A DNA stretch of 64,000 nt, from the NCBI GenBank assembly GCA_026770705.1, contig JANJGN010000189.1, forward strand, positions 310,001 to 374,000, given 5' to 3'. This document shows positions 1,060 through 43,600 of this stretch, one piece after another (the stretch's first letter is position 1; the number at the start of each line of letters is the position of its first letter). The notes beneath the pieces were generated by a model. The model had not been told where the DNA came from. It was given only the letters and a program-made list of their open reading frames with translations, and did no database searches. The position numbers and the translations under genes are program-made. Source of the stretch: Isurus oxyrinchus. Taxonomy: Eukaryota.

Positions 1060-1199
1060 TCAAACAGTCTGTCGACTTCCTTTCACTGTTTGTCTCTCCC
1101 AGACACAGACTCCAGTGATAGTGATAACCACAGCCACAAGGAATATCACAGCTCGTATTCCCAGGATCAGGATCACGTGCAGAATCTCTCCTCCACTGT
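1060..1199 (-). CDS. Gene A terminal TM exon: (Y)SGGEILHVILILGIRAVIFLVAVVITITGVCVWERQTVKGSRQTV*
   Basis: Acceptor ttctctag at 1200-1201, phase 1; hydrophobic helix with an internal Arg; short Tyr-free tail; TGA at 1060-1062. Confidence 0.85.
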
Positions 1200-3538: not shown

Positions 3539-3912
3539 CAGAAACGTGAAGCTGGGTTACAGGATAGTAGCTGTAACTATTCCTGCTGTCAAACTCTATT
3601 CTGAAAAAATAAGGTCCTGCATCTTCCCGTCTGATGTTGTTTATAATCAGGGAACAGTCACCATCTTTCAGGTCTCCAGACAGCCGGGTACGATGGCGGA
3701 ATCTTTGATCCCTGTGATTGTGACCCTCGGAGTGAAAGGCTATAGACCATTTAGGCTGTGGGTTCCCATCTATTCCTTTCAACCAGATTCTGCACGTGAT
3801 CTCCCTACGAAATTTGATAAGTAACTGTAATGACATGGAATCTGTACACATGAACCTTCCTGTGCTGTCACCTCTCATGGAGTGTCACCTTTCCACTCTT
3901 GTGACAGTCCAA
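3539..3912 (-). pseudogene. Gene A Siglec V-set exon, disabled
   Basis: Siglec motifs CVQIPC, GDCSL, DAGPYFFR. Acceptor AG>CG (3913-3914), CGA>TGA at 3875-3877, 1-nt deletion near 3790 (exon 374 nt versus 375/369 in the paralogues). Confidence 0.9.
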
Positions 3913-4615: not shown

Positions 4616-4694
4616 CTTGGAGAAGTGACAAGAGGAAGTAGATTTCCCGATCATTGTCCACTCCCAGATATTCCATCCACTTCTCACTCTCAAG
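4616..4694 (-). CDS. Gene A leader exon (..IYFLLSLLQ|G)
   Basis: ctctttcacag acceptor and CAAG|gtaat donor; ends like the gene B leader (ISLLQG). ATG at 4676 is in frame; ATG at 4654 (MIGK) is 1 nt out of frame. Confidence 0.65.
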
Positions 4695-4939: not shown

Positions 4940-5320
4940 AGAAAGATGTTCTGTACAACAGACTTGAGTCTCACACCCAGATCTCAATAATCAGTAGAAA
5001 TCTTTCAAAGGCATCAATCATTGGAATCTGTCTTCATAAAGTCACAACATCAACAAAGGACGGTGTTGGTGGTGGAAGTGAATTCCAATCGTTCCGTTAC
5101 TTACCCAGGACCTGTCCGACTGCTCGCCTGGGGAGGAACTGCCCACACGCTCTGCTTGGGCTGAATGACCTCTTCCTGTGCTGCTCCCTCTGTGTATTTA
5201 ATGAGAAAGGGTTGATGTGTGTCTGTGAGTCAAAATGAGGAAGTTGGATCAAAGTGACAGACCAGCTCATGTTTTGAGATGTTGGTGAACTGTTAACCCT
5301 TTGTGTCCTGACCCTGTGTT
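4940..5320. repeat. ~380-bp block duplicated at 11521-11915 (partial third copy 5735-5960)
   Basis: Direct sequence match starting agaaagatgttctgtacaacagacttgag; contains the 85-nt exon-like unit. Confidence 0.9.
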
Positions 5321-5474
5321 GATATTTCTGCTCACAGGTGGACAGTCATTGACCAGGAGTTTCTCCTGTGGGTCAGTGGGTTTCACAGCCAAATTCAGGG
5401 GGTCAGAATGTTGTGGGATTCAAGACCCCATTCAGGGGACGTCTGCCCCACAGAGTAGACTGAAACTGCCCAGC

Positions 5475-5672
5475 GTCAGTCCTGAGGGAGTGCTGCACTG
5501 TCGGATGGTCATTACTGCACTATTGTAAGGTCAGTACTGAGGGAGATCTCCACTGTTTGAGGGTGAGTACTGAGGGAGTGCTGCACTGTCAGAGGGACAT
5601 TAATCAGGGAGTGCTGCAATGTTGGAGGATCAGTACTGAGGGAGTGCTGCACTGTTGAAGGGTCAGTATTAA
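5475..5672 (+). repeat. 33-bp tandem array
   Basis: About 6 units seen directly. Confidence 0.85.
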
Positions 5673-5994
5673 GGTGCTGATTTACAAGACAGGACAATGG
5701 ATTAGGAGCCCTCAGAACTCCCCCCGTGATTTCCAATCATTCCGTTACTTACCCCGGACCTGTCCGACTGCTCGCCTGGGGAGGAACTGCCCACACGCTC
5801 TGCTTGGGCTGAATGACCTCTTCCTGTGCTGCTCCCTATTTGTGTTTAATTAAAAAGGGTGGATGTGTCACTGTGAGACAAAATGAGGAAGTGCTTGGTA
5901 CCAAGTGAGAAAGATGCTCTTTGCCTCGCACTGTTAGAAAACTGTTAACCCTTTGCGTGCCAAGAATGTTTTTGAAGGGCCATTGACTGTTCAC

Positions 5995-7862: not shown

Positions 7863-9192
7863 TCATTAAAAATAAATACTGCAGATGCTGTAAATCTGAA
7901 ATAAACACAGAAAATGCTGCATTAACTCAGCAGGTCTGGCAGCAGCTGTGGAGAGAGAAACAGAGTTTTTGCTTTGAGACTCTGAAGAAGGGTCATACGG
8001 ACTCGAAATGTTAATTCTGTTTATCTCTGCACAGATGCTGCCAGACCTACTCAGTTTCTCCAGGATTTTCTGTTTTTATTTCAGGTGCTCTCTTGTTCCT
8101 GTGTAGCACGCTCAAGGGGGCCTCCTCCTGTTCCGATTCAATGGGCAGTCAAAGCATGTGCCTGATTTTGGACCGCGAACCCAAATCTGTCCTCAGGGCA
8201 TTGATAGAGGAAATGACCAGTTACAGATCAATGCAGGAGGATTATTTATTTTCCCAATCTTTGAATCAAGTATCTCATCAAACACAGAGCGGAAACAGGA
8301 TCGAGGATGTTGGTCTCTGTAATCTGTAACACATCGCAAAGTCCACCCATCCACTCAGCCTTCAGGATGGATGCTAATTGTACTCTCCAAGTGTGAAGGA
8401 CTAAAATGGTGGTTTATTGCAGCTCTATCTCATTCTGTTATCAAAGCTGTCTCATCCATCCAATGACATATTGAAGAAGATAAACCTGCAACCAATTTTT
8501 CACATCATAGTTTCCAATGTTCATTGGCAACATCAATGTAAACATGTCATGCTGAAATGATGTCCTCCCACCAGTGGTGGCACTGTAGCACATCTGTTAT
8601 CCTCTAAGCTGCAGAGAATTTCTCAACTCTCCAATCAAATTGTTTCCCTGTTTCCCAGATTCTTGTTTGTTTCGCTGTTTAACGATGAAGTGTAAAATCC
8701 AAATATATATCTGAAAATACATTTGACTACAAAATGCTGAGTAAATTTTGCCAATCTCCTCTGCTCCAATTATCCACCGATCCTGCATTTCCTGAAGTCT
8801 ACACTGGCTGATGAATATTCTGTAAACACTGACAGACAGAAAGGTGAATAACAGAATGAAAATTAACTCATAATCACGGACACGGGATTGAATTTGTCCG
8901 TTCTGTCCTGGTACATCATCGAACGATATCTAAAGATATTTACAATCAGAATGGAGAGAAGGATGTTTCCAACAGTGAGGGACAATTCTGAAGGAGGATG
9001 TTCGAATTGAAACCCACAGACAATCATCCTGGATAGATCATTCCGAAGAAATTCCATCAGATTGTAACAAGAGGTTTAAATCTATTTCCTGGGAGTGAGT
9101 TCCTGTGGATATTAGGAAGGTAAATTGGAGTTTTGAATGATTCTCCCGTTCTGTATTCTCCCCACACTGTGTGTGTCTCATTCTTGCTCAGT

Positions 9193-9309
9193 TTATAAAT
9201 TCCCATAAACAGAATCCTTGGCAAATTCACAGTTTGCGTAAAGATCATCATCTGTATCAGGATTGACTCCGCGGTTAGATTTCATTTCCAGATCCTTCTC
9301 ATCTTTCTT
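9193..9309 (-). CDS. Gene B terminal cytoplasmic exon KKDEKDLEMKSNRGVNPDTDDDLYANCEFAKDSVYGNL*
   Basis: Strong acceptor tttctattacag; phase-0 frame gives two tyrosine motifs, then TAA at 9193-9195. Confidence 0.75.
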   Translation of the reverse strand, partial: KKDEKDLEMKSNRGVNPDTDDDLYANCEFAKDSVYGNL

Positions 9310-12300: not shown

Positions 12301-15300
12301 TTACAGGACTGAGTTGTGAAACAGTGAGTGTTGGATGAGATGTTAAACGGTAGGTGAACATCAAAACTCTTCAGGGGCTGTGAAGGGTTTTGGATTGTAA
12401 AAGTTGCTATAGAAATGCAAGTTCTTTCTATAAGGAGAGAAGGTTGAAGAAAACATGTTCAAAAACAACCAATTAAACCTTCACACTTACTTTCTCACAC
12501 ACTTGAAGATGAAGAATCCACTCAGTCCAACACTCAAACAGATTCCAGCTCCAAGCAATCCTGCTTTCCATTCATTGGAATCTCGCCCTGTAAAATCAGC
12601 CAATGAATGACTCCGGTACAGTTTGAGAATGGTTCCCTATGTACATGTAGTAATTCTGAACTTGTGAAGTGATATTGTCTATGCATGAAAGGTCTATACA
12701 AATAACATTTATCTATGTAATATTTATTGATAATATCCATGTACATGCAGGTTTCTATAAGGAGGATTCACATATAACAGGGGTGCCAAGCTGCTGAGGT
12801 GACACACAGGACTACATACACACCAAACAGCGGAAACAACATGCTACAGACAGAGCAAAGCGATCCCACAACCAACGGGTCAGATCTAAGCTCTGCAGTG
12901 CTGCCACATCCAGTCATGAATGGTGATGGACAATTAAAGATCTAACAGGAGGAGGATGTTCCACAAATATCCCCATCCTTAATGATGGGGGAGCTCAGCA
13001 CATCAGTGCAAACGACAAGGCTGAAGCATTGGCAACCATGTTCAGCCAGAAGTGCTGAGTGGATGATCCATCTCGGCCTCCTCCAGAGGGTCCCAGCATC
13101 ACAGATGTCAGCTTTCAGACAATTCGATTGACTCCACGTGACATCAGGAATCAGCTGATGATACTGGATACAGCAAAGGCTTTTGGCCCTGGCAACAACC
13201 CGGCAACAGGAAATAATGTGGTTACAAGAACGGGTAAGAGGCTGGGAACTCTGCGGTGAGTAACTCACCTCCTGACTCTCCAAAGCCTGTCCACCATCGA
13301 CAAGGCACAAGTCAGGATTGTGATGGAATAATCTCCACTTGGCTGGATGAGTGCAGCTCCAACAACACTCAAGAAGCTCGACACCATCCAGGAGCAGCTT
13401 GTTTGATCGACAGCCCATCCACCAGCATAAACATTCATACCCTCCACCACTGGCACACAATGGCAGCAGTGTATGCACCATCTACAAGATGCACTGCAGC
13501 AACTCACCAAAGCTTCTTCGACTGCACCTTCCAAACCCTTAACCTCTTCCACCAAGACAGTTCCAAGTCAGTGAGGTGTGTGACTTGGAAATCAACATGA
13601 GGTGGTGGTCTGCCCTGGGACTTGGAACTATATCGGCCGTTCCTTCACCGTCGTTGGGTCAAAATCCTGGAACTCCCTCCCTAACAGCACTGTTGGTGTG
13701 CCTACACCACATGGACTGCAGTGGTTAAAGAAGGCAGCTCACCACCACCTTCTCAAGGGGCAGTTACAGATGGGCAATAATTTCTGGCCTTGTCAACAAT
13801 GCCCACATCCCATGAGCTAATAACAAGAGAATGTAGAATTCTGTGTAACTCACGTTCCACAGTGATGGTTATGAATCCCTCCACTGCTCCATGTTCATTC
13901 TCTGCCACACACTGATAGTCTCCAGTGTCCCTGGATGTAACGTGAGGAATCACCAACCACAGCTCATTGTTGGAACTTGTTCTGTTCATTGGGACATTAA
14001 GATGTCGCCACGTCAGGTTAGAAGCTGGGAAGCTCTCGACAGAGCAGATTATCACTGTAGAATTCCCCTCAATTATATTGATCGATGAAGCGTTAATCAT
14101 ATCAAGAGAAGTAATTGAGAGGTTCTGTGGAGCATCTAAAAACATATAAAGATTTTAGAGTGAGCAAGCACAATGCACATCAAGACTCCATGTATCATCT
14201 CTCCGTATCTGATGTCTGAATACAATTCCAGGCACCTTCCTCAGCATAAGTTCCTCTGTCACATTTATAATGGACACTGCCTATGTAAACTGTCACACTG
14301 CAGTTGCATTCCCCCACCAGTTGAGGTGCTATCAATCTAGAATGAAAGAAACTTTCATTCACATCCTCAGGATTTCGCCAAGCCTTTACAGGCAATGAAT
14401 TGTATTTGATTGATGGAGCACTGAGGGGTAAATCTACAATTCACTGTTCAGGAGTTTGGTCATCCAATTCAGGGTCTTGTTGATCTGGAGTTTACCTTCG
14501 TTCCATCCAGAATTGGAGCTGACACCAAGACTCCAGTGCAGAGAGTGCGTGTGGGAGTGCATTTATGTATATGTGTTCAAATCTGAGAGAGTTGTTGAAG
14601 TCTGTGTAACTCACGTTCCACAGTGATGGTTATGAACCCCTCCACTGCTCCATGTTCATTCTCTGCCACACACTGATAGTCTCCAGTGTCCCTGGATGTA
14701 ACGTGAGGAATCACCAACCACAGCTCATTGTTGGAACTTGTTCTGTTCATTGGGACATTAAGATGTCGCCACGTCAGGTTAGAAGTTGGGAAGCTCTCGA
14801 CTGAGCAGATTATCACTGCAGAATACCCCTCAATTATATTGATCGATGAAACGTTAATCATATCAAGAGAATTAATTGAGAGATTCTGTGGTGTGTCTGA
14901 AAACAAATAAAGATCAGTTACTTACATTGTCTGTGAAGCACTTTGAGAGGCCCTGAGAATGTGAAAGGTCTGATATCAATGTAGGTTCCTTCACCACAAA
15001 GCACTTAATTCAGGCAGTCACTACAGCTCAGTACTGAGGGAGTGCTGTACTGTCGGAGGGTCAGTACTGAGGGAGTGCTGCACTGTTGGAGGGTGGGTAC
15101 TGTGAAAGCTGCACTGCCGCATAGTCAGTATTGAGCGAGTACTTCACTGTCGGAGAATGAGTACTGAGGGAGTGCTGCACAGTTGGATGGTCAGTACTGA
15201 GGGAGTGCGGCACTGTCGGAGGGTCAGTACTGAGGGAGTGCTGCACTGTTGGATGGTCAGTACTGAGGGAGTGCTGCACTGTTGGATGGTCAGTACTGAG

Positions 15301-18300
15301 GGAGTGCTGCACTGTTGGAGGTTCAGTACTGATGGAGTGCTGCACTGTTGGATGGTCAGTACTGAGGGAGTGCTGCAATGTCGGAGGATCAGTACTGAGA
15401 GAGTGCTGCATTGTCAGAGGGTCAGTACTGAGGGAGTGCTGCACTGTCAGAGGGTCAGTACTGAGAGAGTACTGCACTGTCAGAGGGTCAGTACTGAGGG
15501 AGTGCAGCACTGTTGGATGGTCAGTACTGAGGGAGTGCTGCACTGTCAGATGGTCAGTACTGAAGGAGTGCTGCACTGTTGGATGGTCAGTACTGAGGGA
15601 GTGATGCACTGTCGGAGGGTCAGTACTGAGGGAATGCTGCACTGTCGGAGGGTCAGTACTGGAAGAATGCTGCACTGTCGGATGGTCAGGACTGGAAGAT
15701 TGCTGCACTGTCAGATGTTCAGTACTGAGGGAGTGCTGCTCTGTCGGAGGGTCATTACTGAGGAAGTGCTGCATTGTCGGAGGGTCAGTACTGGAAGAGT
15801 GCTGCACTGTTGCAGGGTCAGTACTGAGGGAGTGCTGCACTGTCGGAGGGTCAGTACTGAGGGAGTGCTGCACTGTCGGAGGATCAGTAATTAGGGAGAT
15901 CTGCACTGTTGGAGGGTGATAAGACCATAAGACCACAAGACGTCAGAGCAGAAGGAGGCCATTCGGCCAATCAACTCTGCTCCGCCATTCAATGACACCA
16001 TGGCTGATCTGACAATCCTCAACTCCACTTTCCTGCCTCTTCCCCATAGCCTTTGATTCCCTGACTGATTAAAAAACTGTGTCTCTCAGCCTTGAATATA
16101 ATTAATGACCCAGCCTCTGCAGCTCTCTGTAGTAAAGAATTCCACACATTCACTACCCTCTGAGAGAAGAAACTCCTCATCTCTGTCTTAAATGGGTGAC
16201 CCCTTACTCTGAGATTATGCCCTCTGGTCCTAGACTCTCCCACAAGGGGAAACAACCTCTCAGCATCTACCCTGTCAAGCACCCTAAGAATCTTATATGT
16301 TTCAATAAGGTCAGCTCTCATTCTCCTAAACTCCAATGAGTACAGGCCCATCCTACTCAACCTCTCCTCATATGAAAATACCTCATTACTGGGATCAACC
16401 TAGTGAACCTTCTCTGGACTGCCTCCAATGCCAGTACATCTTTCCTTAGATAAGGGAACCAAAACTGCTCACAGTATTCTAGGTGTGGTCTAACTAGTGC
16501 CTTGTAAAGTTTTAGCAAGACTTCCCTATTTTTATACTCCATTCCCTTTGAAATAAAGGCCAACATTCCACCTGCCTTCCCTATTAACTGTTGAACTTGT
16601 ATGTTATCTTTCTGATGACCCCCAAATTCCTCTATGCTTCAGCTTTCCAATGTCTTTCTCCATTGAAATAATATTCAGCTCCTCTATACATCCTGCCACA
16701 GTGCAGCAGCTCACATTTTCCCACATTATATTCCATCTGCCAAGTTGATGTCCACTCACTGAACCTGTCTATGTCCCTCTGTAGACTCTTTGTGTCACCC
16801 TCACCACTTGCCTTCCCATCTATTTTTGTGTCATCCGCAAACTTGGCGAAAGTACATTAATTTCCCTCATCCAAGTCATTAATATATATTGTAAATAATT
16901 GTGGCCCCAGCACTGATCCCTGTGGCAATCCACAGGTTGACATCCTGAAAATGCCCCCCTTATCTCAAATCTCTGTCTTCTCTTAGTTAGTCGATCCTCT
17001 ATCCATGCTAATATACTGCCCCCAACACCATGGGCTCTTATCTTATTAAGTAGCCTTATATGTGGTAATTTACTGAACAACTTTTGGAAATCCAAATATA
17101 TTACATCTACTGGTTCCCCTTTATCTATCCTGTTTGTTATCTCCTCAAGGAATTCTAATAAATTTGTCATGCATGATTTCCCCTTCATGAAGCCTGTGTG
17201 TGATTAAATTATGCATTTCTAAATAGTCTGCTATTACATCCTTTATAATGGACTCTAACATGTTCCCATTGACAGATGTTAAGCTAACTGGCCTATAGTT
17301 TCCTGTTTGTTGTCTCCCTCCCTTTTTGAATATGGGTGTTACTTTGGCAGATTTCCAATCCTCTGGGAGTTTCCCAGAATCTAAGGATTCTTGGAAGATT
17401 AAAACCAGTGCATCCACTATCTCTGCATCTACTTCCTTTAATATCCTAAGATGCAACCTATCAGGTCCAGGGGACCTATCAGCCTTGAGACCCATGACTT
17501 TCCCTAGTATTATTCTCTAGTGATAGTTACTGTATTTATTTCCTCCCCCCACCCCCCTTTTGCCCCTTGATTATTTAGTATTTTTGGAATGCTATTAGTG
17601 TGTTCTACCGTGAAGACTGATGCAAAGTATTTATTCAACTCCTCTGTCATTTCCTGGCTCCTCATTATTATTTCCCCAGCCTAGTTCTCTCAGGGGCCTA
17701 TGTTCACTTTGGTCTCTCTCTCCCTTTTTATATATTTAAAGAAGCTTTTACTGTCCTTTTTTTATAATTTGCTAGTTTACATAGTTTTCTGCCTCTTTAT
17801 TTATTTTTTGGTCATCTTCTGTTGGTTTTTAAAACGTTCCCAATCCTCTGGCTTACCACTAACCATATTGCATGGTTTCTCTTTCAATTTGACACATGCC
17901 TGAACTTCTTTGGGTAACCCAGGTTGGTTTATTCTCTTCCTACAATCCTTCTTCCTCACCGGGATATATCTTTGTTGTGAGTCATGAGATATTTTCTTAA
18001 AGATCTGCCATTGTTCATCCAGCATCTTTTCTGCTAAACCCCTTTCCCAGTCCACTCCAGACAACCCTGTCCTTATTTCTTTGTAATTACACTTATTTAA
18101 GTCCAGCACAGTTGTTTCCGACCCAAGTTTCTCAGTCTCAGAGGGAATGCTGAATTGTACCAGGTTATGGTCATTTTTTTCCAGGGGATCATTTATTCTG
18201 AGATACAGTTCAGAGGAAAACCACCCATTAATATATCCCGTGTCAGTCACACCGTAGCAATAGAGAATTCCGATGGAATAGGGGCCTTTACCCCAAGGAA

Positions 18301-21300
18301 GTGGGAATACAAAGAGGCTCGGAGAGATGCGTCAGGTTATAAATCTCTGCTCAGAGCCCACCTGCAGTTAGTGGCTTCAGTTGTGGGTCCCGCCCCTCAG
18401 GGAGGGTATATTGCCCTCCGAGGGGCTGCAGCCCAGAGTCACCAGAACGATCCCGGGGCTGAAAGGGTTAAATTCTGAGGACAGGTTGCACAGACCAGGC
18501 TTGTGTTCCCTCGAGTCTTGAAGATTAAGGGGTGATCTAATCGAGGGGTTTAAGATGATTAAAGGATTTGATGGGGTCGATAGAGAGAAACTATTTCCCC
18601 TGGTGGTGGGGGTGAGGTGAGGGGGTGGGGGTGAGGGTGGGGGTGGGGGTGGGGGTGGGGGTGGGGGTGAGGGTGGGGGTGGGGGGTGGGGGTGGGGGTG
18701 AGGTGAGGGGGGGTCCAGAACAAGGGGGCAGAATCTTAAAATTGGAGCCAGGCCGTTCAGGGGGTGATGTCAGGAAGCAATTCTTCACACAAAGGGGGGG
18801 TGGAAATCTGGAACTCTCTCCCCCAGAAAAAGCTGTCGAGGCTGGGAGGGGTCAATTGTAAATTTCAAAACTGACATTGGGAGATTTCTGTTGGGTCGGG
18901 GGGTGTTTAAGGTTTAAGGAACCGAGCTGGGTGGATGGGGTTAATATACAGAACAGCCGTGATCTGATTGAATGGGGGAACAGGCTGATTATTGAATGAC
19001 TGGGAATGTCAGCCCAGTGTATGGATCGCCAATCTCTAGAATGGGAGGATTCCTCTTCTATTGGAATTCATTCAGTAATGTGGGCATCACTGGCAGGGCC
19101 AGCGTTTATTGCCCATCCCTAGTTGCCCCTTGAGAAGGCGGTGGTGAGCCGCCCGCTCGAATACAACTGAGTGGCATGCCCGGCCCATTCAGAGGGGCAG
19201 TTAAGATTCCCCCACATGGCTGTGGGTCAGGAGTCACATGTAGGCCAGACCGGGTAAGGATGGCAGAATTCCCTCCCTAAAGGAGATTACTGGCCCAGAT
19301 GGGTTTTTACAACAATCTGGTAGTTTCATGGTGACCATCACTGAGAATTGTGAACAAACTGTGGAGAAATGTCGACTTGCCAGCCAATCAGCACGCCCTC
19401 TTCCCCCGCATCAGAAATGGCTGTTCCCTTTGAGATTGGGTTTTCTCGTGACTCTGTCCTGACGAGGATTGAAACCTTCGACAGCATGTTTTCAGCAACA
19501 CCCAAGGGGAGATTTGGTTCACCTCGGAGTTTGGACAAGATGTGGAATTGTTTAAAAGTCAGGATTGAAATTACTCACATTCAGTGGGAATTCTAATGGG
19601 CAGAGACTGGGAACTGCCCAGGATACTTGTTGCTTCACAGTAGTAGGAGATTTCCTCATCGAATCCATAAGGAACTGTAATAGTTTGACCAGCGAGCGCG
19701 AGATTCGTCATCTTTCCTTGGGAGATCTTAAACCAGGTGAAATTGTGGACTGCTGGATTCCCGTCACTGGAACAACTTAGAGAAATCACCTTTCCTTTTT
19801 CCAGTGTCAGCCTGACAGACGTGTTGTGAGGAGAATCTTTCAAATACAAAATTATCAACACATTAAACACTGAGTGTGATGGAATTCTCTCCAGTTGCCG
19901 GGATGAGTGCGGCTCCAACAACACTCAAGAAGCTCGACACCATCCAGGACAAAGCAGCCCGATTGATTGGCATCCCACCCACCATCTTCAACATTCACTC
20001 CCTCCACCATGAACACACATTGTTAGCAGTGTGCACCATTTTATTAGTGATGATCTTATATTGATGGCCCCTAACTCTTCGTCACTCCGACAAGTGGAGA
20101 CATCTTCTCCACATCTACCCTATCGAAACCCTTTCACCATTTTAAGGACCTCGATGAGGTCACCCCCTCAGCCTTCTCTTTTCTAGAGAAAAGAATCCCA
20201 GCTTGTTCAGTCTTTCCTGATAGCTATAACATCTCAGTTCTGGAATCATCCTTGTCAATCCAACTTGCGCCTTCTCCAATGCCTGATTTAATAGGAGACC
20301 GACTCCCCCTCCATCACAAGCATGATGTTCTAATCAATACTTACACTTTACACTCAGAGTAACGGAGCTGACCACTCGATGGCTGGTTTGAGGGTAGTCG
20401 CACGTACAGCGGAGAGTTCGTCCATGATGCTTGAACGAAGGGTTAAAGGTCAGTAGAGCGGAAACCTCACCACCGTTCTCTGTAATGTTGCTGACCGATG
20501 AAGTCAGCAATTCACTCCAGGTTAGATTGGGGTGGTTATCAGGGCAGGTGTAGAGGCATTTACAGATGATATGTGCAGGAGTCCCCTCCTGTAAATCCTT
20601 CAGGAGCACAATAACTGGCTTATCTGGAGCATCTGTAATAGAAAGTTCCAGATGTTAACTGACAAGCAGAAAACAATTTGTATTTGTCCTCTGATTTTTC
20701 AATAGGGTCACAGACACTCAGAACACAGAAGGAGGCCATTGGCCCATCCAGTTCATGCTGTCTCTCTGTAGAGCAATCCAATCAGTCCCATTCCCCCCGC
20801 TCTGTCCTCGTATCCCTGTGAGTTTATTTCCAATTGTCCGTCCAATTTCCTTTTGAAATTGTTCATCGTCTCCACTTCCACCATCCTCGTAGGCAGCGAG
20901 TTCCAGCTCATTACCACTCGCTGTGTAAAAAAGTTCCTCCTCACATCGCCCCCCACCCACAACCTTCAATCTGTGTCCCCCGGTCCTTGTACCATCAGCT
21001 AATGGCAACATCTTCTCTTCGTCTACCTTATCTAAACCCATCATCATCTTGTACACCTCGATCAGATCCCCCCTCAATCTCCTTTGTTCCAAGGAGAACA
21101 ACCCCAGCTCCTCCAACCCAACCTTGTAGCTAAAATCCCTCATCCCTGGACCCATTCTGCTCAATCTCCTCTCCACCCAGAAGCAAAAAATCAGTTCAGA
21201 TCAGTACTCTTATCTCGCAGTTTTACTGGTGTTCTATATTATTCTATACAAGACCAGTTTGGACCAGTACTCTTATTTCCCAGTTTAACTGGTGTTCTAT

Positions 21301-23942
21301 ATTAAGCTATGCAAGACCAGTTTGGACCAGTACTCTTATTTCCCAGTTTAACTGGTGTTCTATATTAAGCTATACAAGACCAGTTTGGACCAGTACTCTT
21401 ATTTCCCAGTTTTACTGGTGTTCTATATTAAGCTATACAAGACCAGTTTGGACCAGTACTCTTATTTCCCAGTTTTACTGGTGTTTTATATTAAGCTATA
21501 CAAGACCAGTTTGGAGCAGGACTCTTATTTCCCAGTTTTACCACTGTTATATGTTAAGCTATACAAGACCAGTTTGGAGCAGGACTCTTATGTCCCAGTT
21601 TTTACAGTTTTGTCCTCTTGGACACCCTTTCTGAAGCTCTTACATCTTTCCTGAAGTGTGGAGGCCCAGCGTTCTGAACAATATTCCAGCTGAGTTCTAA
21701 CCAGTGATTTATAAAGTTCCCGCATGATCTCTTTGCTTTTAACTCAGTTCCTCAGTCTGTTAACACAAGGAAGACATTTTCTTTCTTCATCACCTCAACA
21801 ATTTGTCCTTTAATCTTTCAGAATGAGTGCAGAGAGACGCCCAGGTCTCTGCTCACCTACACCTGTCCAAATCATTACTGTCCAATATCTGTCTGTATTC
21901 ATCCTGACAAAGTGCGTCACTTCACACGACACTGCGCTGAACTGCATCAGCCATGTGTCTGCCCACCTCACACTGATCCTGCCCCTCTCATGCCCAATCT
22001 CTCCTTATCACTACCCACGGCTTTGCCAAGTTTCATTCCATCAGAAAACATCATCACTGAGGGACACTTAGCGATTGCCAGCTTCAATGTGTGAGAGCAG
22101 ATTCTGCTCTGCAATTCCACGTAACTCCAGGCTGACATGCTCCAGTTAACACATGGGGATGTGGAGCAGTTGCAGCTGAAGTGGGAACAACAGTAAAGTT
22201 AAAAACATTTTGATACAAGTGATAATTCTCAGACAGAGCAGCACTCACTCGGCAAAGACCCCCCAACGGTGCAGCACTCCCTCAATACTGACCCCCCAAA
22301 GGTGCAGCACCCCCTCGGTACTCACCCTCCGACAGTGCAGAACTCCCCCTGTACTGACCCTCCGACAGTACAGCACTCCATCAGTACTGACCCGGTGACA
22401 GTGCAGCACTCCCTCAGTACTCACCCTCCGACAGTGTAGCACTCCCTCAGTACTGACCGTCCGACAGTGCAGCACTCCCGCAGTACTGATGCTCTGACAG
22501 TGTGGCACTCGCTCAGTACTGACCCTCCGACAGTGCAGCACTCCCTCAGTACTGACCCTCTGACAGTGTGGAACTCCCTCAGTACTGCACCAGATCACAT
22601 ACTGGACTTTGTTCTGACATCTCCTGGAGCAGGAATTCAACCCATGACTGCCTGGCTCTGAGATGAGAACATGACCCCCTTGTGCTGATAGACTGAGTGT
22701 GAAAGGAACTGGGACTTACCAAGAACCTGGAGTTGGACTGGTTGTGTAAAAGTGTGATCTGTGTAGCCCTCCACATCCACATAAAAGTAATACACATCAC
22801 TATCTTCAGCTCTGAGACTGTCAATCCTCACCGAACAATTCTTCCCTTCCAAGTCGCCGATTATTTTAGCACGTCCCACGAATGTGGCCATCGCATAGTT
22901 GGGATCTTTGGTGTATGTGATGGTATATTTCCATCTATACCAATATTTATACCAAGCTCCGTGCAGTGCTGTGTAAGAGTGGGAAGGAAAGTCAAAGCTA
23001 CACGGAATAACCACACAAGAGCTGCTGATGGCCCTCCGAGACAGCGCCTTCATAGACCATCCCTCTGACGTCACTCCTGAAAGGCAACAAGGGAAGAGAC
23101 AGGACATCAAAAAGCAGAATATTACTTCAATGGAGAGAGGCAGCAGAATGCGGTACAGAGGGATCTGGGTGTCCTTGTACATGAATCACAGAAAGTCAGC
23201 ATTCAGGAACAGCACGGAATGAGGAAGGCAAGTGGAATGTTGGCCTTTATTGCAAAGGGATGGAGTATAAAAGGAGGGAAGTCTTGCTACAACTGTACAG
23301 GGCGTTGGTGAGATTGTATCAGGAGCAGTGTGTAGAGTTCTGGTCTCCTTACTTAGGGAGGGATAGACTCTGCATTGGAGGCAGCTCAGAGGAGGATCAC
23401 TGGGCTGATTCCTGGGATGAAGGGGGTTTGTCTTATGAGGAAATGTTGAGCAGGTTGGGCCCTGTATCCATTGGAGTTTAGAAGAATGAGAGGTGATCTT
23501 ATTGAAACATATAAGATTCTGAGGTGGTGGGGGGTTTGACAGGGTGGATGCTGAGGGGATGTTACCCCTTGTGGGGGAATCCTGTGAAGCAATAAGGATG
23601 TTTTACTGCATTAAAGGTGCTATATAAATGCACTGTCATTCCTATTGAAACAAGCTCTCTGATGCACAAACAGAAAATGCTGGAAAAACTCAGCCGGTCT
23701 GACAGCATCTGTGGAGAGAGAAACAGAGTTGGTGTTTCGAGTCCGTATGAGACTTTTGCTTTTGCTAAATTCTCTGACTCGCTATTCACTCACTCTCTGT
23801 GTGATCACTAACCCTTTTCTCTAAAATTAAATGTTCACTTCCTCACTCCAGGAAAGAATCCAATTCCCTGAGTTCCGATCAGTAATGAATTTGTACCTTG
23901 CAGCAAGCTGATGAAGATCAGTATCAGACCGACCTCTCCCAT
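9193..23942 (-). CDS. Gene B: Siglec-like type I receptor, L-V-C2-C2-C2-C2-TM-cyt, 9 coding exons, ~603 aa
   Basis: join(23897-23942, 22720-23076, 20345-20632, 19579-19836, 14615-14896, 13854-14135, 12491-12587, 11686-11770, 9193-9309) = 1812 nt, open frame, all introns GT-AG with compatible phases. The tail exons are the least certain part. Confidence 0.8.
9408..10937 (+). repeat. 24-bp minisatellite GATTATTGATTCTGAACGGGGTTT (~63 units)
   Basis: Direct tandem; the ORF track shows an 8-aa LIIDSERG period. Confidence 0.97.
11686..11770 (-). CDS. Gene B candidate middle cytoplasmic exon (85 nt, phase 2 to 0) GSSTRRGHSAQAERVGSSSPGEQSDRYW
   Basis: acacag acceptor and TGG|gtaagt donor; bridges the TM exon (phase 2) to the terminal exon (phase 0); similar size to gene C's 82-nt middle exon. 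Confidence 0.55.
12491..12587 (-). CDS. Gene B TM exon RDSNEWKAGLLGAGICLSVGLSGFFIFKCVRK
   Basis: ttttacag acceptor, gtaagt donor, uncharged hydrophobic helix; homologous to 42911-43007. Confidence 0.9.
12780..13820 (+). mobile_element. Degenerate LINE (CR1/L2-group) fragment with internal deletions
   Basis: LDTAKAFGP and KAQVR..EYSPLGW motifs; same family at 35140-37220, 39440-39890 and 42320-42780. Confidence 0.7.
13854..14135 (-). CDS. Gene B C2-set Ig domain 5
   Basis: 282 nt, phase 1-1; APQNLSI..CSVESFPASNLTW..DTGDYQC. Confidence 0.92.
14615..14896 (-). CDS. Gene B C2-set Ig domain 4 (tandem duplicate of domain 5)
   Basis: 282 nt, phase 1-1, near-identical to 13854-14135. Confidence 0.92.
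15028..15918 (+). repeat. 33-bp tandem array (~27 units)
   Basis: Direct tandem; 11-aa period in the ORFs. Confidence 0.97.
15920..18200 (-). mobile_element. CR1 LINE ORF2 (RT) fragment, degraded
   Basis: NYRPVSLTS, KSCMTNLLEF, DVIYLDFQK, LYKALVRPHLEYC in several frames. Confidence 0.95.
18290..18990 (+). mobile_element. CR1 3' fragment with internal (GGGGGT)n tract at 18603-18713
   Basis: RLRGDLIEGFK motif; related copies on the opposite strand at 33000-34080 and 11245-11520. Confidence 0.8.
19579..19836 (-). CDS. Gene B C2-set Ig domain 3 (CD22/sialoadhesin-like)
   Basis: SPHNTSV..LSCSSDGNPAVHNFTWFK..YYCEATSILG; 258 nt, phase 1-1, gtgagt donor. Confidence 0.88.
20345..20632 (-). CDS. Gene B Siglec domain-2 C2 exon
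   Basis: APDKPVI..CKCLYTCPDNHPNLTW..LTFNPSFKHHGRTLRC; the extra Cys after strand B is typical of Siglec D2; 288 nt, phase 1-1. Confidence 0.92.
20718..21178 (-). mobile_element. CR1 3' fragment
   Basis: Near-identical to 480-950 in reverse orientation. Confidence 0.9.
21195..21605 (+). repeat. 63-bp minisatellite (~6.5 units)
   Basis: AAGACCAGTTTGGACCAGTACTCTTATTTCCCAG.. in tandem; 21-aa period. Confidence 0.92.
22235..22590 (-). repeat. 33-bp tandem array inside a SINE remnant
   Basis: Reverse orientation of the same unit. Confidence 0.9.
22720..23076 (-). CDS. Gene B Siglec-type V-set exon (no essential Arg)
   Basis: CVVIPC (strand B), KNCS (strand E), DSDVYYFY (strand F with no Cys) match the Siglec V cysteine pattern; 357 nt, phase 1-1. 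Confidence 0.92.
23120..23582 (+). mobile_element. CR1 fragment just upstream of the gene B V exon
   Basis: MEYKRREVLLQLYRALVR; very similar to 52960-53400. Confidence 0.88.
23897..23942 (-). CDS. Gene B signal peptide exon MGEVGLILIFISLLQ|G
   Basis: ATG at 23942, hydrophobic core, phase-1 donor; upstream acceptor at 23957 implies a non-coding 5' exon. Confidence 0.85.
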
Positions 23943-25015: not shown

Positions 25016-25074
25016 GATACGGAAGGATTTAAGACCTGCTCATGATTTCAGCTCAAAACCCAGGCAGATTCTCC

Positions 25075-25740
25075 CCAGTGAGGGAGTGCTCAGGGGGTGC
25101 TGCACTGTCAGAGGGTCAGTGCTGAGGGAGTGCTGCACTGTCAGAGGGTCAGTGCTGAGGGAGTGCTGCACTGTCAGAGGGTCAGTACTGAGGGAGTGCT
25201 GTACAGTCAGAGGGTCAGTACTGAGGGAGTGCTGCACTGTCGGAGGGTCAGTACTGAGGGAGTGCTGTACAGTCAGAGGGTCAGTACTGAGGGAGTGCTG
25301 TACTGTCAATGGGTCAGTACTAAGGGAGTGCTGCACTGTCAGAGTGTCAGTACTGAGGGAATGCTGCACTGTCGGAAGGTCAGTACTGAGGGAGTGCTGT
25401 ACTGTCAATGGGTCAGTACTAAGGGAGTGCTGCACTGTCAGAGTGTCAGTACTGAGGGAGTGCTGCACGGTCAGAGGATCAGTACTGAGGGAGTGCTGCA
25501 CTGTCGGAGGGTCAGTGCTGAGGGAGTGCTGCACTGTCAGAGGGTCAGTACTGAGGGAGTGCTGCACTGTCAGAGTGTCAGTACTGAGGGAGTGCTGCAC
25601 TGTCAGAGGGTCAGTACTGAGGGAGTGCTGCACTGTCGGAGGGTCAGTACTGAGGGAGTGCTGCACTGTCAGAGGGTCAGTACTGAGGGAGTGCTGCACT
25701 GTCAAAGGGTCAGTACTGAGGGAGTGCTGCACTGTCAGAA
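25075..25740 (+). repeat. 33-bp tandem array (~20 units)
   Basis: Direct tandem. Confidence 0.97.
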
Positions 25741-27080: not shown

Positions 27081-27612
27081 CCATGTCTTTATTTGGTGCA
27101 GCACTCATTTAGTTCATGTCGTTGTTTCAATGCTACAAAACCACAGTGCATTCTGGACTATTTCTGCCTGACCTGCTGTCAGATACACACAGTCTGACAG
27201 AGAGGCGGAAAAGTGGTCCCTAGCAACCTGTATGACTGTNNNNNNNNNNNNNNNNNNNNNNNNNNNNNNNNNNNNNNNNNNNNNNNNNNNNNNNNNNNNN
27301 NNNNNNNNNNNNNNNNNNNNNNNNNNNNNNNNNNNNNNNNNNNNNNNNNNNNNNNNNNNNNNNNNNNNNNNNNNNNNNNNNNNNTATGCACACGCATACA
27401 AACACACGCTCACACACAAACTCACACACACACATACATGCACATTTTCTCTTTCTCTCTCTCCTTCTCTCTCTCACACAAACACACTCTCACTCTCTCC
27501 CACACATTGTCTTTCTCTCCCACACACTCACACACTCTTTCTGTCTCTGAGACGGAATGTTGGGGTTTGAGACCGTCTCAAGGTTACAGCTCAAAACGCA
27601 GACAGACTCTCC

Positions 27613-37410: not shown

Positions 37411-37659
37411 TCAGTTTTTCTGGAACCTGATCTGTGCGTATTCCGTGTCCTCGCTCCTGTGCACAGTCCTGTCACCGCCGGGCAGCTTTGAAAAGTTGAT
37501 GTTGGCGTAGAGAAGCTTGGCGGGATTGTCGGGGTTCCCATGTCCAACATCGCCTCCCACTGGACCTTCAGAGAGATCCCGGGGAGCTGGGGTCTCCCCC
37601 TCACTAGTTGTGTCTCTGGTTGTGTTCCGGGGCTCAGTAATCAGCACGTTCTGTTTACC
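37411..37659 (-). CDS. Gene C distal terminal exon with ITIM (LLYANI) and ITSM (TEYAQI)
   Basis: ctctgtag acceptor, phase 0, 249 nt; classic Siglec tail architecture. Confidence 0.9.
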   Translation of the reverse strand, partial: GKQNVLITEPRNTTRDTTSEGETPAPRDLSEGPVGGDVGHGNPDNPAKLLYANINFSKLPGGDRTVHRSEDTEYAQIRFQKN

Positions 37660-40600
37660 CTACAGAGAAATGGAAACAGAAGATATCCTCACATCAATTA
37701 CTGGTACTGATAGGGTTAAATTATTGTGCAGCCTCATTAGTGTCAGTCGTATCTCAGTGGGTTTAACCCTTTTTTTCACTCTCTTTCTCTGTCTCTCTCG
37801 CTTTCTCTCTCTCTTTATAATTTAATCTCTATCACACTCCAACAGTGCAGCACTCCCTCAATACTGACCCTCTGACAGTGCAGCACTCCCTCAGTGCTGA
37901 CCCTCCGACAATACAGCGCTCCCTCAGTACTGACCCTCTGTCAGTGCAGCACTCCCTCAGTACTGACCCTCCAACAGTGCAGCACTCCCTCAGTACTGAC
38001 CCTCCAACAGTGCAGCACTCCCTCGGTAATGGCTCTGGTGAGTGATGGCTTGGAATCTGCACACAGGTGCCTGGTGTGAGGCTCAATAACATGAACCTTG
38101 TAATCAGAGAGAGGATGAGAGAGAGGGAGAGAGGAGGGACAGAGACAGAGTGTTATTAATCTATTAATGTTTGTATTATAAATGCAAACTGTCTTTTTAA
38201 ACAGAGGTTTAGTCTGTGTGTGTGTCTGTGTGTATTTTAATTGGATTAAAGCCAGCCAGTCTGGGTGCTTTGATGTATAGTAGTTTTCAGATGTAAACAA
38301 AGAGGTAAAGTGGTAATTTGCATTTTTAAATAAAACATTAAATGCCTGAGAGTGAAATCTTAAACCAATCAACGTTTATATTACTAATAAAATTGATACG
38401 ATGAAAGGGGATTTATTATTGGAAGAGATGGAGTTCAAAGGTCCTGATGATACATTGCGAATTTACCTTCAAACAGAAGCCATAAGACCATCAGATATAG
38501 GAGGAGAAATTAGACCATTCGGTCCATCGAGTCTGCTCCACCATTCATACATGGCTGATATGTTTCACAAACCCCATTCTCCCACCTTCTCTCCTAACCT
38601 TTGATCCCCTGACCAATCAAGAGCCCATCAATCTCCGTCTTCCTTACACTCAAGAGCTGGGTATAACTTGAGCAGTTTTGTGTGTGCAGAACAGAGGCTT
38701 GTAACATCAAAGCAGCTGTAAGCCTACACCTGTCTGCAAAGGAACCAAAGTGAAAGGAACCTCATTTGGAATTTGTGAGGTGAAAATGCTTTGCCTGGGT
38801 GTCTGCTTAAAGATAATGGGTTGTCTTAGAGGAGATTAGTTTGAGAATTTGTTAAAAATTTATGATGATACTAGTTTGTAGCCATGTGCATATGTTTAAC
38901 TTGTGTAAATTAATATATGTCTCAAGTAGTTTGATATAAAACCATCTCAAGAACTGGTGGTCTTATTCCTGAATTTAGAGCTGCATCTCAAACATTCCAC
39001 TGGGAAATATAGGTTATGACAGTTGTTTAAAGTTTCCCTCTGGGATTTTAAACAACAGCCTTTACCAGTTTCTGTGTCATAATAGAGAGACAGCATGATA
39101 CTGAACCATTGCTGACTCCACAGATACAAATCAGTGGGTAACTGGGCTGGGAATCTGGGACATGTGTTGTCTACACACTGAGATTGAAGCTTTGGAGTGA
39201 GTGTAAACAGCTCCTGTACCTGGTGCTTCACACAGAGTGAACTGGGGGTCAATGCAATGTCTCTGGTCCCTGAAACTCTCTCCTCCATCGCTGTCTTTCT
39301 CCTGCAATAACACAATATGACACTGTGGTTATCATATAGCAGAGAGTCAGTGCAGCACAGACATAGAGCACACTGTAACCTTACACCAATGACTGGACTG
39401 TCTCTTTAAATCACTTCTGCACAAAGCACAGAATCTAGAATCTTGACACCATCCAGGACAAAGCAGCCCGATTGATCTACACCCCATCCCCCACATTAAA
39501 CATTCACTCCCTCCACCATGAACACACAGTGGCAGCAGTGTGTGTACCATCTACAAGATGCACTGCAGCAACTCAGCAAGGCTCCTTCAACAGCACCTTC
39601 CAAACCCACGAACTCTACCATCTAGAAGGACAAGGGCAGCAGACACATGGGAACACCACCACCTGGAAGTTCCCCTCCAAGTCACTCACCATCCTGACTT
39701 GGAAATATATCACCGTTCCTTCATTGTCGCTGGGTCAAAATCCTGGAACTCCCTCTCTAACAGCACTGTGGGTGTACCTACACCACATGGACCGCAGCGG
39801 GTCAAGAAGGCAGCTCACCACCACCTTCTCAAGGGCAATTAGGGATGGGCATTAATGCTGACATCACCAGTGACAGACACATTCGATGAAAGAATTAAAA
39901 ATCTCACAGCTCAATGTATTTATTGTGACCCTGCTGCACACACTCCCTGTCGAAGGAGCCTTTGTGGTTCTATTGTTAATCGAAGCAGATCAGAGTTACT
40001 ACAACCACTTGCATTTATATAGCACCTTCAATGTAGCAAAATGTCCTAAGGCTCATCTGGGGATTGTTAGTGACATCTTCACCTGACTCTGAGGCACATG
40101 AGGAGATATTAGGGACAGGAGACCAACAGCTGAGTCAACAAAGTCAGTTATTAACGGGCATCTTAAAGGAGGAGCTGGAGATAGGGAATGAGAGACAGAC
40201 ACAGAAAGAAAGACAGAGACAGGGAGAGAGAGAGAGAGAGAGAGGGAGAGAGCGAGAGAGAGAGGGAGAGAGAGAGAGAGAGAGAGAAAGACAGTGAATC
40301 TCTATCCCCAATGGCTCAGCATCCAGTCCTCTCTGGAGAAGCATTTCATTCCAAACCACACCAACCGCAGCCCAATTCCATCCCTTCCTCCCTCTTTCCC
40401 CCTCTCCCCCAGTGGGTGTTTCCTGTTCCCAGGAATCTCAATCACTACCCCCACCCCCATACCTCCTCACTCACTCTCCCCATTTCTCATTCAGTTATGC
40501 TCGAACCTGATCTGTGCGTATTCCGTCTCCACTTCCCTGTGGACAGACCCATCACCACTGGACATCCTCAAGACTTGGGGATTGGCCTAGAGAAACTCTT

Positions 40601-43600
40601 CAGGTTTGTCAGGGTTCCCATGTCCAACATCGCCTCCCACTGCATCTTCAGAGAGACCCCAGGGAGCTGGGGTCTCCCCCTCGCCAGTTGCGTCTCTCTT
40701 TGTGTTCTGGGGCTCAGTAATCAGCACGTTCTGTTTACCCTACAGAGAAATCGAAACAGAAGTTATCCTCACATCATTTACTGGCACTGATAGGGTTAAA
40801 TTATTGTGCAGCCTTGTTAATGTCAGTCGTGTCTCAGTTGGTTTAACCCTCTCTCTCATGTCATATGAAAGATACCACCTATGGCAGTGCAACGCTCCCT
40901 CAGGACTGACCCTCCGACAGTGCAGCACTCCCTCAGTACTGACCCTCCGACAGTGCAGCGCTCCCTCATTACTGACCCTCCGACAGTGCAGCGCTCCCTC
41001 AGTACTGACACTCCGACAGTGCAGCACTCCCTCAGTACTGACCCTCTGTCAGTCTTGCACTCCCTCGGTAATGGCTCTGGTGAGTGACAGTTGGATTCTG
41101 CACTCAAGTGTCTGGTGTGAAGCTCATTAACATGCACCTTGTAATCAGAGAGAGGATGAGAGAGAGAGAAAGAGAGAGAGAGAGAAAGAAAGGGAGGTTG
41201 GGATAGAGAGAGAGACTGTCATGATGCGATTAATAAATATCATGTTATTGGAAATTATTTTTATTCACATCGGGGTTTAGTCTGTGGGTGTGTCTCTGTG
41301 TGTTTTAATTGGATTAAAGCCAGCCAGTCTGGGTATTTGATGTATAGTAGTTTTGAGATGTAAACTGAGGCATAAAAATTTGTATTTTTAAACAGAGCAT
41401 TCAATGCCTGAGAGTGAAATCTTAAACCAATCAACATTTATTTTATTGATAAAATTGATACTATGACAGAGGATTTATTGTTTGAAGGGATGGAGTTCAA
41501 AGGTCCTGATGATACAATTAGAATTTACATTCAAAGAGAAGAGCTGGGTATAACTTGAGCAGTTTTGTGTGTGCAGAGCAGAGGCTTGTAACATCAAAGC
41601 AGCTGTAAGCCTACACCTGTCTGCAAAGGAACCAAAGTGAAAGGAACCTCATTTGGAATTTGTGAGGTGAAAATGCTTTGCCTGGGTGTCTGCTTAAATT
41701 CTATGGGTTATCTTAGAGGAGATTAGTTTGGGAATTTGTTAAAAAGTTATGATAATACTAGTTTGTAGCCATGTGCATATGTTTAACTTGTGTTAATTAA
41801 TAAATGGCTCATGTAGTTTGATATAAAACCATCTCGAGAACTGGTGGTCTTATTCCTGAATTTAGAGCTGCATCTCAAACATTCCACTGGGAAATATAGG
41901 TTATGACAGTTGTTTAAAGTTTCCCTCTGGGATTTTAAACAACAGTCTTTACCAGTTGCTGTGTCATAACAGAGAGACAGCATGATACTGAAACATTGCT
42001 GACTCCACAGGTACAAATCAGTGGGTAACTGGGCTGGGAATCTGGGACACGTGTTGTCTACACACTGAGATTGAAGCTTTGGAGTGAGTGTAAACAGCTC
42101 CTGTACCTGGTGCTTCACAGAGAGTGAACTGGGGCTCAATGCAATGTCACTGGTCCCTGAAACTCTCTCCTCCATCGCTGTCTTTCTCCTGCAATAACAC
42201 AATATCACACTGTGGTTATCATATAGCAGAGAGTCAGTGCAGCACAGACACAGAGCCCACTGTTAGCTTACACCAACGACTGGACTGTCTCTTTAAATCA
42301 CCTCTGCACAAAGCACAGAATCAAGACGCTTGACACCATCCAGGACAAAGCAGCTCGATTGATCCATACCACATCCACCACATTAAACATTCACTCCCTC
42401 CACCACGAACACACAGTGGAAGCAGTGTGTGTACCATCTACAAGATGCACTGCAGCAACTCAGCAAGGCTCCTTCAACAGCACCTTCCAAACCCACGACC
42501 TCTACCATCTAGAAGGACAAGGGCAGCAGACACATGGGAACACCACCACCTGGAAGTTCCCCTCCAAGTCACTCACCATCCTGACTTGGAAATATATCAC
42601 CGTTCCTTCACTGTCGCTGGGTCAAAATCCTGGAACTCCCTCTCTAACAACACTGTGGGTGTACCTACACCACATAGACTGTAGTGGGTCAAGAAGGCAG
42701 CTCACCACCTCTTTCTCAAGGGGCAATTGGGAATGGGCAATTAGTATTGTCCACGCCAATGACAGCCACATTCGATGAAAGAATTTAAAATCTCACAGCT
42801 TAGGAGGAAGCCACTCAGCCCATCGTGCCTGTGCTGGCCTTTTGTAAAAACTGTCCAATTAGTCCTAAGCAAATGTTTAGATTAAAATCAAGTTAAATCT
42901 TCAGACTTACTTTCTCACACAGATGAAGATGAAGATTCCAGCCAGGAAAACACTCAACATGATCCCAGCCGTGAACAATCCTACTGTCCATTTACTGGAG
43001 TCTCTACCTGTAAAAACAGCCATTAATTACTGCACTACAGGTTTACAATGATGCTCCGATGTATCTCGAGAAGCGATACACTCACTCAATGTTTAAATAC
43101 TCATTCTCGGGCAATGCTGACATTTATTGTCCATCCCTAGTTTCCCCTTGAGAAGGTGGTGGGGGGTCTTCCTCCTGAACCACTGGTTTGTCCCAAACTG
43201 GAAGACCAGTTCAGAGGGCAGGTAAGAGTTAACCATGTTGGTGTCTGAGACTGGAGTCACATATACACCCAGACCTGTTAAAATGGACAGGTTTCGCTCC
43301 CTTAAGATCATTAGTGACCCATATTATATATGTAATTTCTATATATATGTATCAACTACCCTCCCTAAAATAATCAATTATCACCTCAATTTCACGCTGT
43401 TGTTTGTGGGATCTTGCTGTGCACAAATCAGCTGTTGCGTTTCCAACATGATAACAGTGAGCTCACTTCGAAACTGCTTTACTGGTTATCAAGAGTTTTG
43501 GGAATTCCTAAGTATTTTATCAACGCAAGTCTTATATTTCGATTTAATCCATGTAACATTTATATATAATATTTATCAATGTGATCCCTATAGCATAAAT

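Follow-up and report, generated by a model that had tools for sequence, protein, structure and literature searches.

Paired Siglecs have so far been known from a few mammalian pairs. As set out in two accounts of these receptors (PMC4042635, PMC6288428), primate Siglec-5/14 and Siglec-11/16 carry near-identical ligand-binding ends on opposite signalling tails, their activating members have a basic transmembrane (TM) residue and no ITIM, null activating genes are frequent, gene conversion and null activating alleles are known, and the activating mammalian Siglecs use DAP12. Here, we analyse a 64,000-nucleotide stretch of DNA from Isurus oxyrinchus (the window; contig JANJGN010000189.1, positions 310,001 to 374,000) that contains the TM exon of a broken Siglec-like gene, gene A, together with the cluster to which this gene belongs. 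The cluster resembles the primate pairs in its near-identical ligand-binding ends on opposite tails, in the basic TM residue and missing ITIM of its Arg-bearing class, and in its frequent null activating genes. By contrast, it holds roughly 200 activating-type and 200 inhibitory-type TM anchors, against two pairs in human (PMC4042635, PMC6288428); activating genes have up to at least seven tandem V exons; the shark TM exon is no mutated copy of the inhibitory one; gene A is not the lost twin of a single neighbour; and DAP12 is the adaptor of the primate system.

The Xenopus XFL/SLAM-like NxxR families are a second close system. In the two reports on them (PMC2413239, PMC6557307), the TM segment and short tail lie in one exon, activating and inhibitory genes are similar in number and intermingled, ectodomains vary, one activating TM exon type is reused across receptor families, and the C-terminal end of the TM segment is acidic; the shark class shares all of these traits. 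Unlike the Xenopus receptors, however, the shark class has Leu and not Asn three residues before the Arg and has Siglec-type ectodomains, and the shark cluster exceeds the 70-75 genes per family given there. FcR-gamma association was demonstrated for XFL (PMC2413239, PMC6557307) and is a prediction for the shark Arg class. Siglec-15, which is present in fish, is like the shark receptors built from V, one C2 and a basic TM residue; it is, however, one of the conserved Siglecs and uses Lys (PMC7226832). According to the same teleost study, fish genomes lack CD33-related Siglecs (PMC7226832), while 4-5 CD33-related genes are given for three mammals (PMC4384638), and in the accessible text of the whale shark genome paper Siglecs are mentioned once (PMC8455134). 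Our search, which ran outside subscription journals and supplements, found no paper describing a shark Siglec cluster. What is new here is the scale and layout of the paired shark cluster, with a portable Arg anchor that lacks the NxxR motif.

The TM exon of gene A and its surroundings

The features of the window that matter here are given below. Joints and contigs come from runs X1, X5, X6, X7 and X17, which we guess to be RNA and whose source organisms may differ from that of the window.

1060..1199, - strand: terminal exon of gene A, encoding a TM segment with an intramembrane Arg and a short tail; 212 exact core matches genome-wide, GT-AG joints into its paralogue L102
2863..3015, - strand: 5'-truncated second C2 remnant with its GT donor kept; common among intact paralogues, whose listed transcripts skip it
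3539..3911, - strand: dead Siglec-type V exon of gene A; member of a clade of 22 rows, all broken
4616..4694, - strand: gene A leader exon; lacks one base of the usual leader frame and is in phase 1 only if read from an upstream ATG
5105..5892, - strand: conserved element with a GT donor, present twice; lies ~540 bp upstream of most leaders of the family
8413..9309, - strand: terminal exon of gene B, with AATAAA at 8418; joint 11070>9309 in X1, contigs over 8320-9313 in X1, X5 and X7
12491..23076, - strand: ectodomain of gene B (a different V type, three C2) and its uncharged TM exon; C2-to-TM joint 14614>12586 in X1
37413..56466, - strand: gene C, inhibitory type, with V, V, C2, C2, C2, an uncharged TM and an ITIM-bearing last exon; 221 matches to its TM core

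The exon at 1199-1060 (- strand) is phase 1, follows an acceptor AG at 1201-1200 that is preceded by a pyrimidine tract, and encodes 45 residues, SGGEILHVILILGIRAVIFLVAVVITITGVCVWERQTVKGSRQTV*. Its hydrophobic stretch, which spans residues 5-33, is the strongest real one in the window (19-residue Kyte-Doolittle mean up to 2.95) and contains the Arg as residue 15 (codon CGA at 1155-1153); the tail beyond the Trp has 12 residues and no Tyr. Sequence and phase agree with the preliminary description, which had reported an Arg-bearing TM exon with a Tyr-free tail of 12 residues. The non-homology to the TM exon of gene C that was claimed there is borne out as well: BLASTP gives no alignment of the two exons, and the DNA of the exon has no match in the whole window besides itself. 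Judged by its relatives, the exon is not a chance open reading frame, because annotated shark receptors end in near-identical peptides and because GT-AG joints enter a paralogous copy in contigs of three of the four runs compared with that copy.

The ectodomain of gene A is dead, as had been stated. The V exon has CG where the acceptor AG belongs and is further disrupted by a TGA (3877-3875) and a frameshift. Of the C2 exons, the first one that relatives carry is absent, and the second is the truncated remnant at 3015-2863. In L102 the joint 8034>9624 bypasses the corresponding remnant, and one X7 contig joins the C2 remnant to the TM exon. A leader-to-V joint is seen for paralogues of gene A in X1, X6 and X7. 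In gene A, a one-base deletion in the leader (4616-4694) puts the upstream ATG in phase with the TM exon, and this altered leader recurs in the dead-V clade and in some V-less loci. The conserved element at 5105..5892 is likely a promoter plus a non-coding first exon; its copies at 5892 and 5244 were first read as tail exons of gene B, a reading that was dropped since they precede leaders. An inhibitory-type gene whose exons are open begins ~2.7 kb downstream of the TM exon, immediately beyond the left edge of the window. We conclude that gene A is a pseudogene of the ordinary kind, one of many in a birth-and-death array.

Gene B ends ~7 kb upstream of the TM exon of gene A with its own stop and AATAAA. 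Its tail exon ends at 11070 and its terminal exon starts at 9309; the latter encodes two Tyr motifs, the last of which fits the ITIM consensus, and has its stop at 9195-9193. The V exon of gene B (22724-23076) represents a second V type, in which the sialic-acid column has no Arg; genome-wide, it has many partial copies among 118 candidates. A first-exon-like element at 11659-11959 (11822), between the TM exon and the tail exon of gene B, may be a remnant or a co-opted tail exon. The leader of gene C lies right of the window at ~65423, and an Arg-TM gene is located upstream of gene C, close to the right edge of the window but outside it. V1 of gene C (56092-56466) has Ser in the sialic-acid column. 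The ITIM-bearing last exon of gene C is duplicated (40741 and 37661), the first copy having an early stop, and that of the gene left of the window is likewise duplicated, with both copies open; for these two genes, out of 221 anchors, the last exons were found to carry ITIM-type motifs. Finally, satellite arrays of 33 bp and 24 bp (5459-5680, 15015-15920, 22225-22590, 25074-25740, 27612-28343, 37834-38044, 40878-41086; 9405-10940) produce long spurious open reading frames in the window.

Copies of the exon in the genome and in other sharks

A 261-base query with the TM exon gave 229 candidates in the genome of the window, and the best 40 of the 229 were scored as 99-100% identical. A 35-base pattern of the exon's core, in which the Arg codon was left open, had 212 exact matches, whereas the reversed control had none; the Arg codon CGA was present in 207 of them. 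The core of the uncharged TM exon of gene C had 221 matches at no more than one mismatch, and a 26-mer of the V exon had 657. Contig C52 (4.17 Mb) alone contains 64 Arg-type and 54 inhibitory anchors, and it serves as a floor for the genome-wide anchor counts, which may include haplotype duplicates and overstate the haploid number. Near-identical copies of the window's block lie on C52, and an FcR-gamma-like exon lies on two small contigs of almost the same sequence; because of this recurrence, some contigs are possibly alternative haplotypes. Three V-motif matches lie on larger contigs outside the main cluster (C25:36073498; C34:15138188 and 15163826).

Integrity was scored in the 10 kb upstream of 61 of the 64 C52 matches and of 19 top BLAST matches elsewhere. 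The preliminary description had called for a genome-wide check for intact paralogues and for homologous TM exons beside Siglec-like exons elsewhere; many such exons were found, numerous of them intact. On C52, 23 of the 61 copies have an open V, an open first C2 and an Arg TM exon, two have an open ectodomain but Gln in place of the Arg, 19 have no open V within 10 kb, and 17 have no open first C2. With 212 copies of the exon and these 23 open genes, the activating class has not been lost. The leader lies inside the 10 kb in 4 of the 23 open copies. When 18 of the other 19 were extended by a further 10 kb, a leader appeared in 10 (one with a stop in the second V), four were still within arrays of 5, 6, 6 and 7 open V exons, and four had no same-orientation leader. 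A leader was thus found for 14 open copies, 13 of which have no broken V. Accordingly, 13 of the 61 C52 copies have every part from leader to stop, and as many as 23 may have them; only 13-23 of 61 look functional.

Several activating-type loci, i.e. L188+L104 (C52:3537797-3557796) as well as L064, L084 and L099, carry tandem arrays of five to at least seven open V exons at intervals of ~2.3 kb, followed by a single C2 and the TM exon. Among inhibitory-type genes, L115/L116, L125/L126, L139/L140 and L141/L142 have 7 to 11 tandem copies of the second C2, and stalk length varies widely.

Joints were scored on paralogues of gene A, with the complete copy L102 as reference, and not on gene A itself. 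For L102, GT-AG joints V>C2 and C2>TM were detected in contigs of X1, X5 and X6, which belong to three studies, the shorter sides of the X1 joints having only 29 and 21 letters; in X17 neither joint was detected on L102, and an unspliced contig crosses the acceptor. One 972-nt contig of X6 spans V, C2 and TM of L102 with 5, 5 and 1 differences, and a leader-to-V join was found at the same depth. In X1, moreover, the end of one V is joined to the start of another, fitting tandem V inclusion. We conclude that paralogous transcripts of this TM exon class are spliced V-C2-TM. Junctions into the exon, for which a search had been proposed, were thus seen in the L102 paralogue; as to position 1199 itself, none of the 15 joints listed (there are 242 others) enters it from the C2 exons of gene B or from the leader of gene A, which carries no weight either way.

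Nine proteins from Carcharodon, Scyliorhinus and Chiloscyllium end in the peptide of the TM exon, and a profile search with 10 matches added Hemiscyllium, Rhincodon and Mustelus; P0016 (E 4.5e-5, 10 short stretches) was left out of the count. The Arg is kept in all 14 shark proteins read in which the exon is terminal and in one model in which the segment is internal (six shark genera). The named matches included no ray, chimaera or bony fish. The exon is thus conserved across sharks at the level of these predicted proteins. The ectodomains above it are named CD33-like, Siglec-12/13-like, CD22-like, sialoadhesin-like, CEACAM5-like and SLAM family member 9-like, the names being automatic and given to predicted models. 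In the window's genome, a diverged copy at C21:89447523-89447621 (L162, L190), 67% identical over 434 bases including the intron (~300 bp), sits behind a non-Siglec (SLAM/CEACAM-like) V-C2 ectodomain whose V-like piece has a stop; P0014, a relative of this copy, has weak matches to CEACAM and CD276. On the evidence of the varied ectodomains in other sharks and of this diverged copy behind a non-Siglec ectodomain, we conclude that the Arg TM exon has moved between receptor families.

Pairing, ligand and adaptor

For the V tree, we used 144 V exons, 114 from Arg-TM loci and 30 from inhibitory-type loci. The tree has 17 changes between activating and inhibitory labels, at least 12 of which are forced by well-supported branches, compared with a mean of 26 after shuffling; because of this, the labels are to be seen as clustered but mixed. 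For each of the 30 inhibitory V exons, the activating loci contain an open V that is 90.7-99.2% identical to it. On C52, the next same-strand anchor upstream within 35 kb is of the Arg type for 27 of 54 inhibitory TM exons, while the shuffle mean is 13.3 and none of 5000 shuffles reached 27; downstream, the next anchor is of the Arg type for 7 of 53 inhibitory anchors. The layout of the window fits a module in which an Arg-type gene lies upstream of an inhibitory gene. One gene with both tails by way of alternative last exons was considered and rejected, since in the regions read the downstream inhibitory genes mostly show their own leader and V exons. With the Arg in 14 of 14 shark proteins and the V exons interleaved in the tree, the assignment to an activating-type TM exon of a paired Siglec-like family stands. 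In total, we conclude that the family is paired, that genes A and C are not a pair, and that the activating class is not lost.

The Siglec-type architecture of V and C2 was found for intact paralogues and not for gene A itself. The homologue P0003 has the Pfam domains V-set, Ig_CD22 and C2-set_2, and its best PDB matches, with Cys residues aligned, are CD33, MAG and Siglec-5 (E 1e-26 to 2e-23), to which it is far closer than to Siglec-15 (8e-11); CD33 (97 bits) and MAG (90 bits) score almost alike. The F-strand Arg of the sialic-acid column is present in 70 of 81 distinct open V exons and aligns with the CD33 Arg in the same motif. Because P0003 is closest to CD33, MAG and Siglec-5 and because 70 of the 81 V exons keep this Arg, the V domain of intact copies likely binds sialylated glycans.

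As for signalling, the genome contains TM exons with Cys and Asp, which we take to be of FcR-gamma-like and CD3-zeta-like type, the former on contigs C1723 and C1648 and the latter on C18. A search at 28-91 aa for full-length shark FcR-gamma proteins in that exon's frame gave no candidate, which is not evidence of absence. A Pfam DAP10 scan of the genome gave 16 matches, all with E 0.4 or worse, and Pfam has no family for the TM peptide. In 6 of 6 aligned rows, Leu and not Asn stands three residues before the Arg, and Glu34, the acidic residue at the C-terminal end of the TM segment, is invariant; TM segment and tail are in a single terminal exon. The activating members have a basic TM residue and a short tail without a Tyr motif, a combination described as an established sign of coupling to ITAM adaptors (PMC13358205). 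An FcR-gamma-like partner is somewhat favoured, because the residue is Arg and not Lys, because the TM C-end is acidic and because TM and tail share one exon, as in NxxR receptors. Against it stand the missing Asn, which is given as typical of FcR-gamma partners (PMC6557307), and the use of DAP12 by activating mammalian Siglecs (PMC4042635, PMC6288428). A DAP12-like partner is distinctly less probable but worth considering, and a partner of neither kind would be fairly unlikely.

Persistence of the exon and meaning of the cluster

Probably, the TM exon is what normally closes the genes of a greatly amplified class of shark Siglec-like receptors, which likely activate through an adaptor with an acidic residue. 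Gene A would then be a broken member of a set of ~200 copies, and its anchor likely owes its intact state solely to recent block copying. That the exon is intact despite a dead ectodomain, as was emphasized earlier, is true of gene A but not exceptional: of 47 sampled copies in which the ectodomain is broken, 45 have an open TM frame. Across 81 copies, diversity is 0.010 in the TM exon and 0.012 in the adjacent intron, and the changes in the exon comprise 14 distinct non-synonymous and 2 synonymous ones, so that no purifying selection on the exon was seen in this within-genome comparison; for that reason, many copies may be passengers. The CpG of the Arg codon is changed in 3 of 81 copies, which is within the range of neighbouring CpG sites and is not counted as support for selection on this codon. 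A recent block copying, by duplication or conversion, accounts for the intact exon without selection on gene A. In the V exons overall pN/pS is 0.64; a value of 1.2 on variable columns is circular, the columns having been picked by variability, and positive selection is not claimed.

Two other accounts look to the neighbours of gene A. In the one proposed originally, gene A is the activating partner of inhibitory gene C, lost in the manner of SIGLEC14-null or SIGLEC16P. Genes A and C do share V family and strand, and gene A is dead; however, the V of gene A, said to be a close paralogue of gene C V1, is only 82.6% identical to V1 and 82.1% to V2, whereas gene C V1 matches a V from an intact activating gene at 96.8% identity, and gene C is 96% identical over 9,007 bp (60973-52009) to the activating genes L059 and L056, both intact. 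The close activating twins of gene C thus survive elsewhere. Moreover, the V of gene A falls into a separate clade of 22 rows (support 100/100), all broken, which was copied at least 22 times among the 81 sampled loci, and the usual module neighbour, which is also the direct downstream neighbour of gene A, is the inhibitory-type gene left of the window. We regard this partnership as largely refuted and give it next to no credence. In the other account, gene B or another upstream gene splices its C2 exons onto the TM exon, and the resulting activating isoform keeps the exon intact. The phases match, as had been pointed out, donor and acceptor both being phase 1; elsewhere too, B-type TM exons often lie ~8-16 kb upstream of an Arg TM exon, and in other sharks the Arg exon terminates CD22-like and sialoadhesin-like models. 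Such splicing is nevertheless possible but unlikely, because gene B is equipped with a TM exon, a tail exon, a terminal exon containing a stop, and an AATAAA of its own, with joints and contigs in support; in addition, two first-exon-like elements and a leader exon intervene, and there is no selection excess on the TM exon to account for, making a gene B isoform a very improbable reason for the state of the exon.

Two further accounts concern what the exon does. The Arg might bind no adaptor but snorkel to headgroups or mark the edge of the helix, in which case the proteins would be non-signalling decoy or adhesion receptors; the hydrophobic stretch of residues 5-33 could accommodate a helix that begins close to the Arg, and the NxxR motif is missing. 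This is unlikely in light of the invariance of the Arg across shark genera and ectodomain types, and of the short Tyr-free tail in the same exon and the intermingling with ITIM genes, both of which match the activating FcR-like class of Xenopus as reported (PMC2413239). Alternatively, copies whose V is dead or missing, gene A among them, might yield short membrane proteins of the form leader-C2-TM or leader-TM, and these could serve as adaptor sinks or as ligand-blind modulators. All 22 members of the dead-V clade have an open TM frame, the upstream ATG of gene A holds its leader in phase with the TM exon, and eight sampled loci lack a full V between their leader and an open TM exon: seven (L038, L068, L071, L075, L076, L092 and L103) contain an open C2, and in one, L074, the leader is followed directly by the TM exon. 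Where no open V was present, the TM frame was open at all 39 of 39 loci, while the C2 exon, which is twice as long, was open in 28 of 31; this small excess leaves room for such products but is not significant (P = 0.06, against a rate biased upward). Set against these points, the TM exon and the adjacent intron are equally diverse, most changes in the exon are non-synonymous, and the altered leader combines an acidic N-region with a short hydrophobic core; we consider V-less products quite unlikely.

Working copies have the structure leader-V(1 to at least 7)-C2(-C2)-TM(Arg), end in a Tyr-free tail, and share V exons with interleaved ITIM-bearing genes, often lying head-to-tail upstream of them. 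Under our preferred reading of an amplified, likely activating class, their V domain would bind sialylated glycans by the F-strand Arg present in most open V exons, and the TM Arg would pair with the TM Asp of an ITAM adaptor. Activating copies would thereby counter pathogens that engage their inhibitory twins, and birth-and-death turnover would leave many pseudogenes such as gene A. The ~200 Arg-type copies, many of which are intact, and the interleaved relatives with tyrosine motifs, present in similar number, likely form a very large switch-on/switch-off receptor system. Only tentatively do we put forward the fuller picture of a several-hundred-gene paired Siglec system of sharks, which would by far exceed every Siglec repertoire described, and in which a portable, shark-specific, non-NxxR Arg exon might be grafted onto Siglec and non-Siglec ectodomains, might use FcR-gamma and not DAP12, and might serve up to at least seven sialic-acid-binding V domains per activating receptor.

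The local story of a single lost partner is one of ordinary pseudogene turnover. The cluster as a whole is a ready test set both for activating Siglecs as counter-traps against sialic-acid mimicry and for the question of which adaptor early vertebrates used. Its multi-megabase extent, with activating-type and inhibitory-type anchors in similar numbers, suggests that sialic-acid sensing by opposed signals is as old as the jawed vertebrates, or that it has re-arisen on a much larger scale in sharks.
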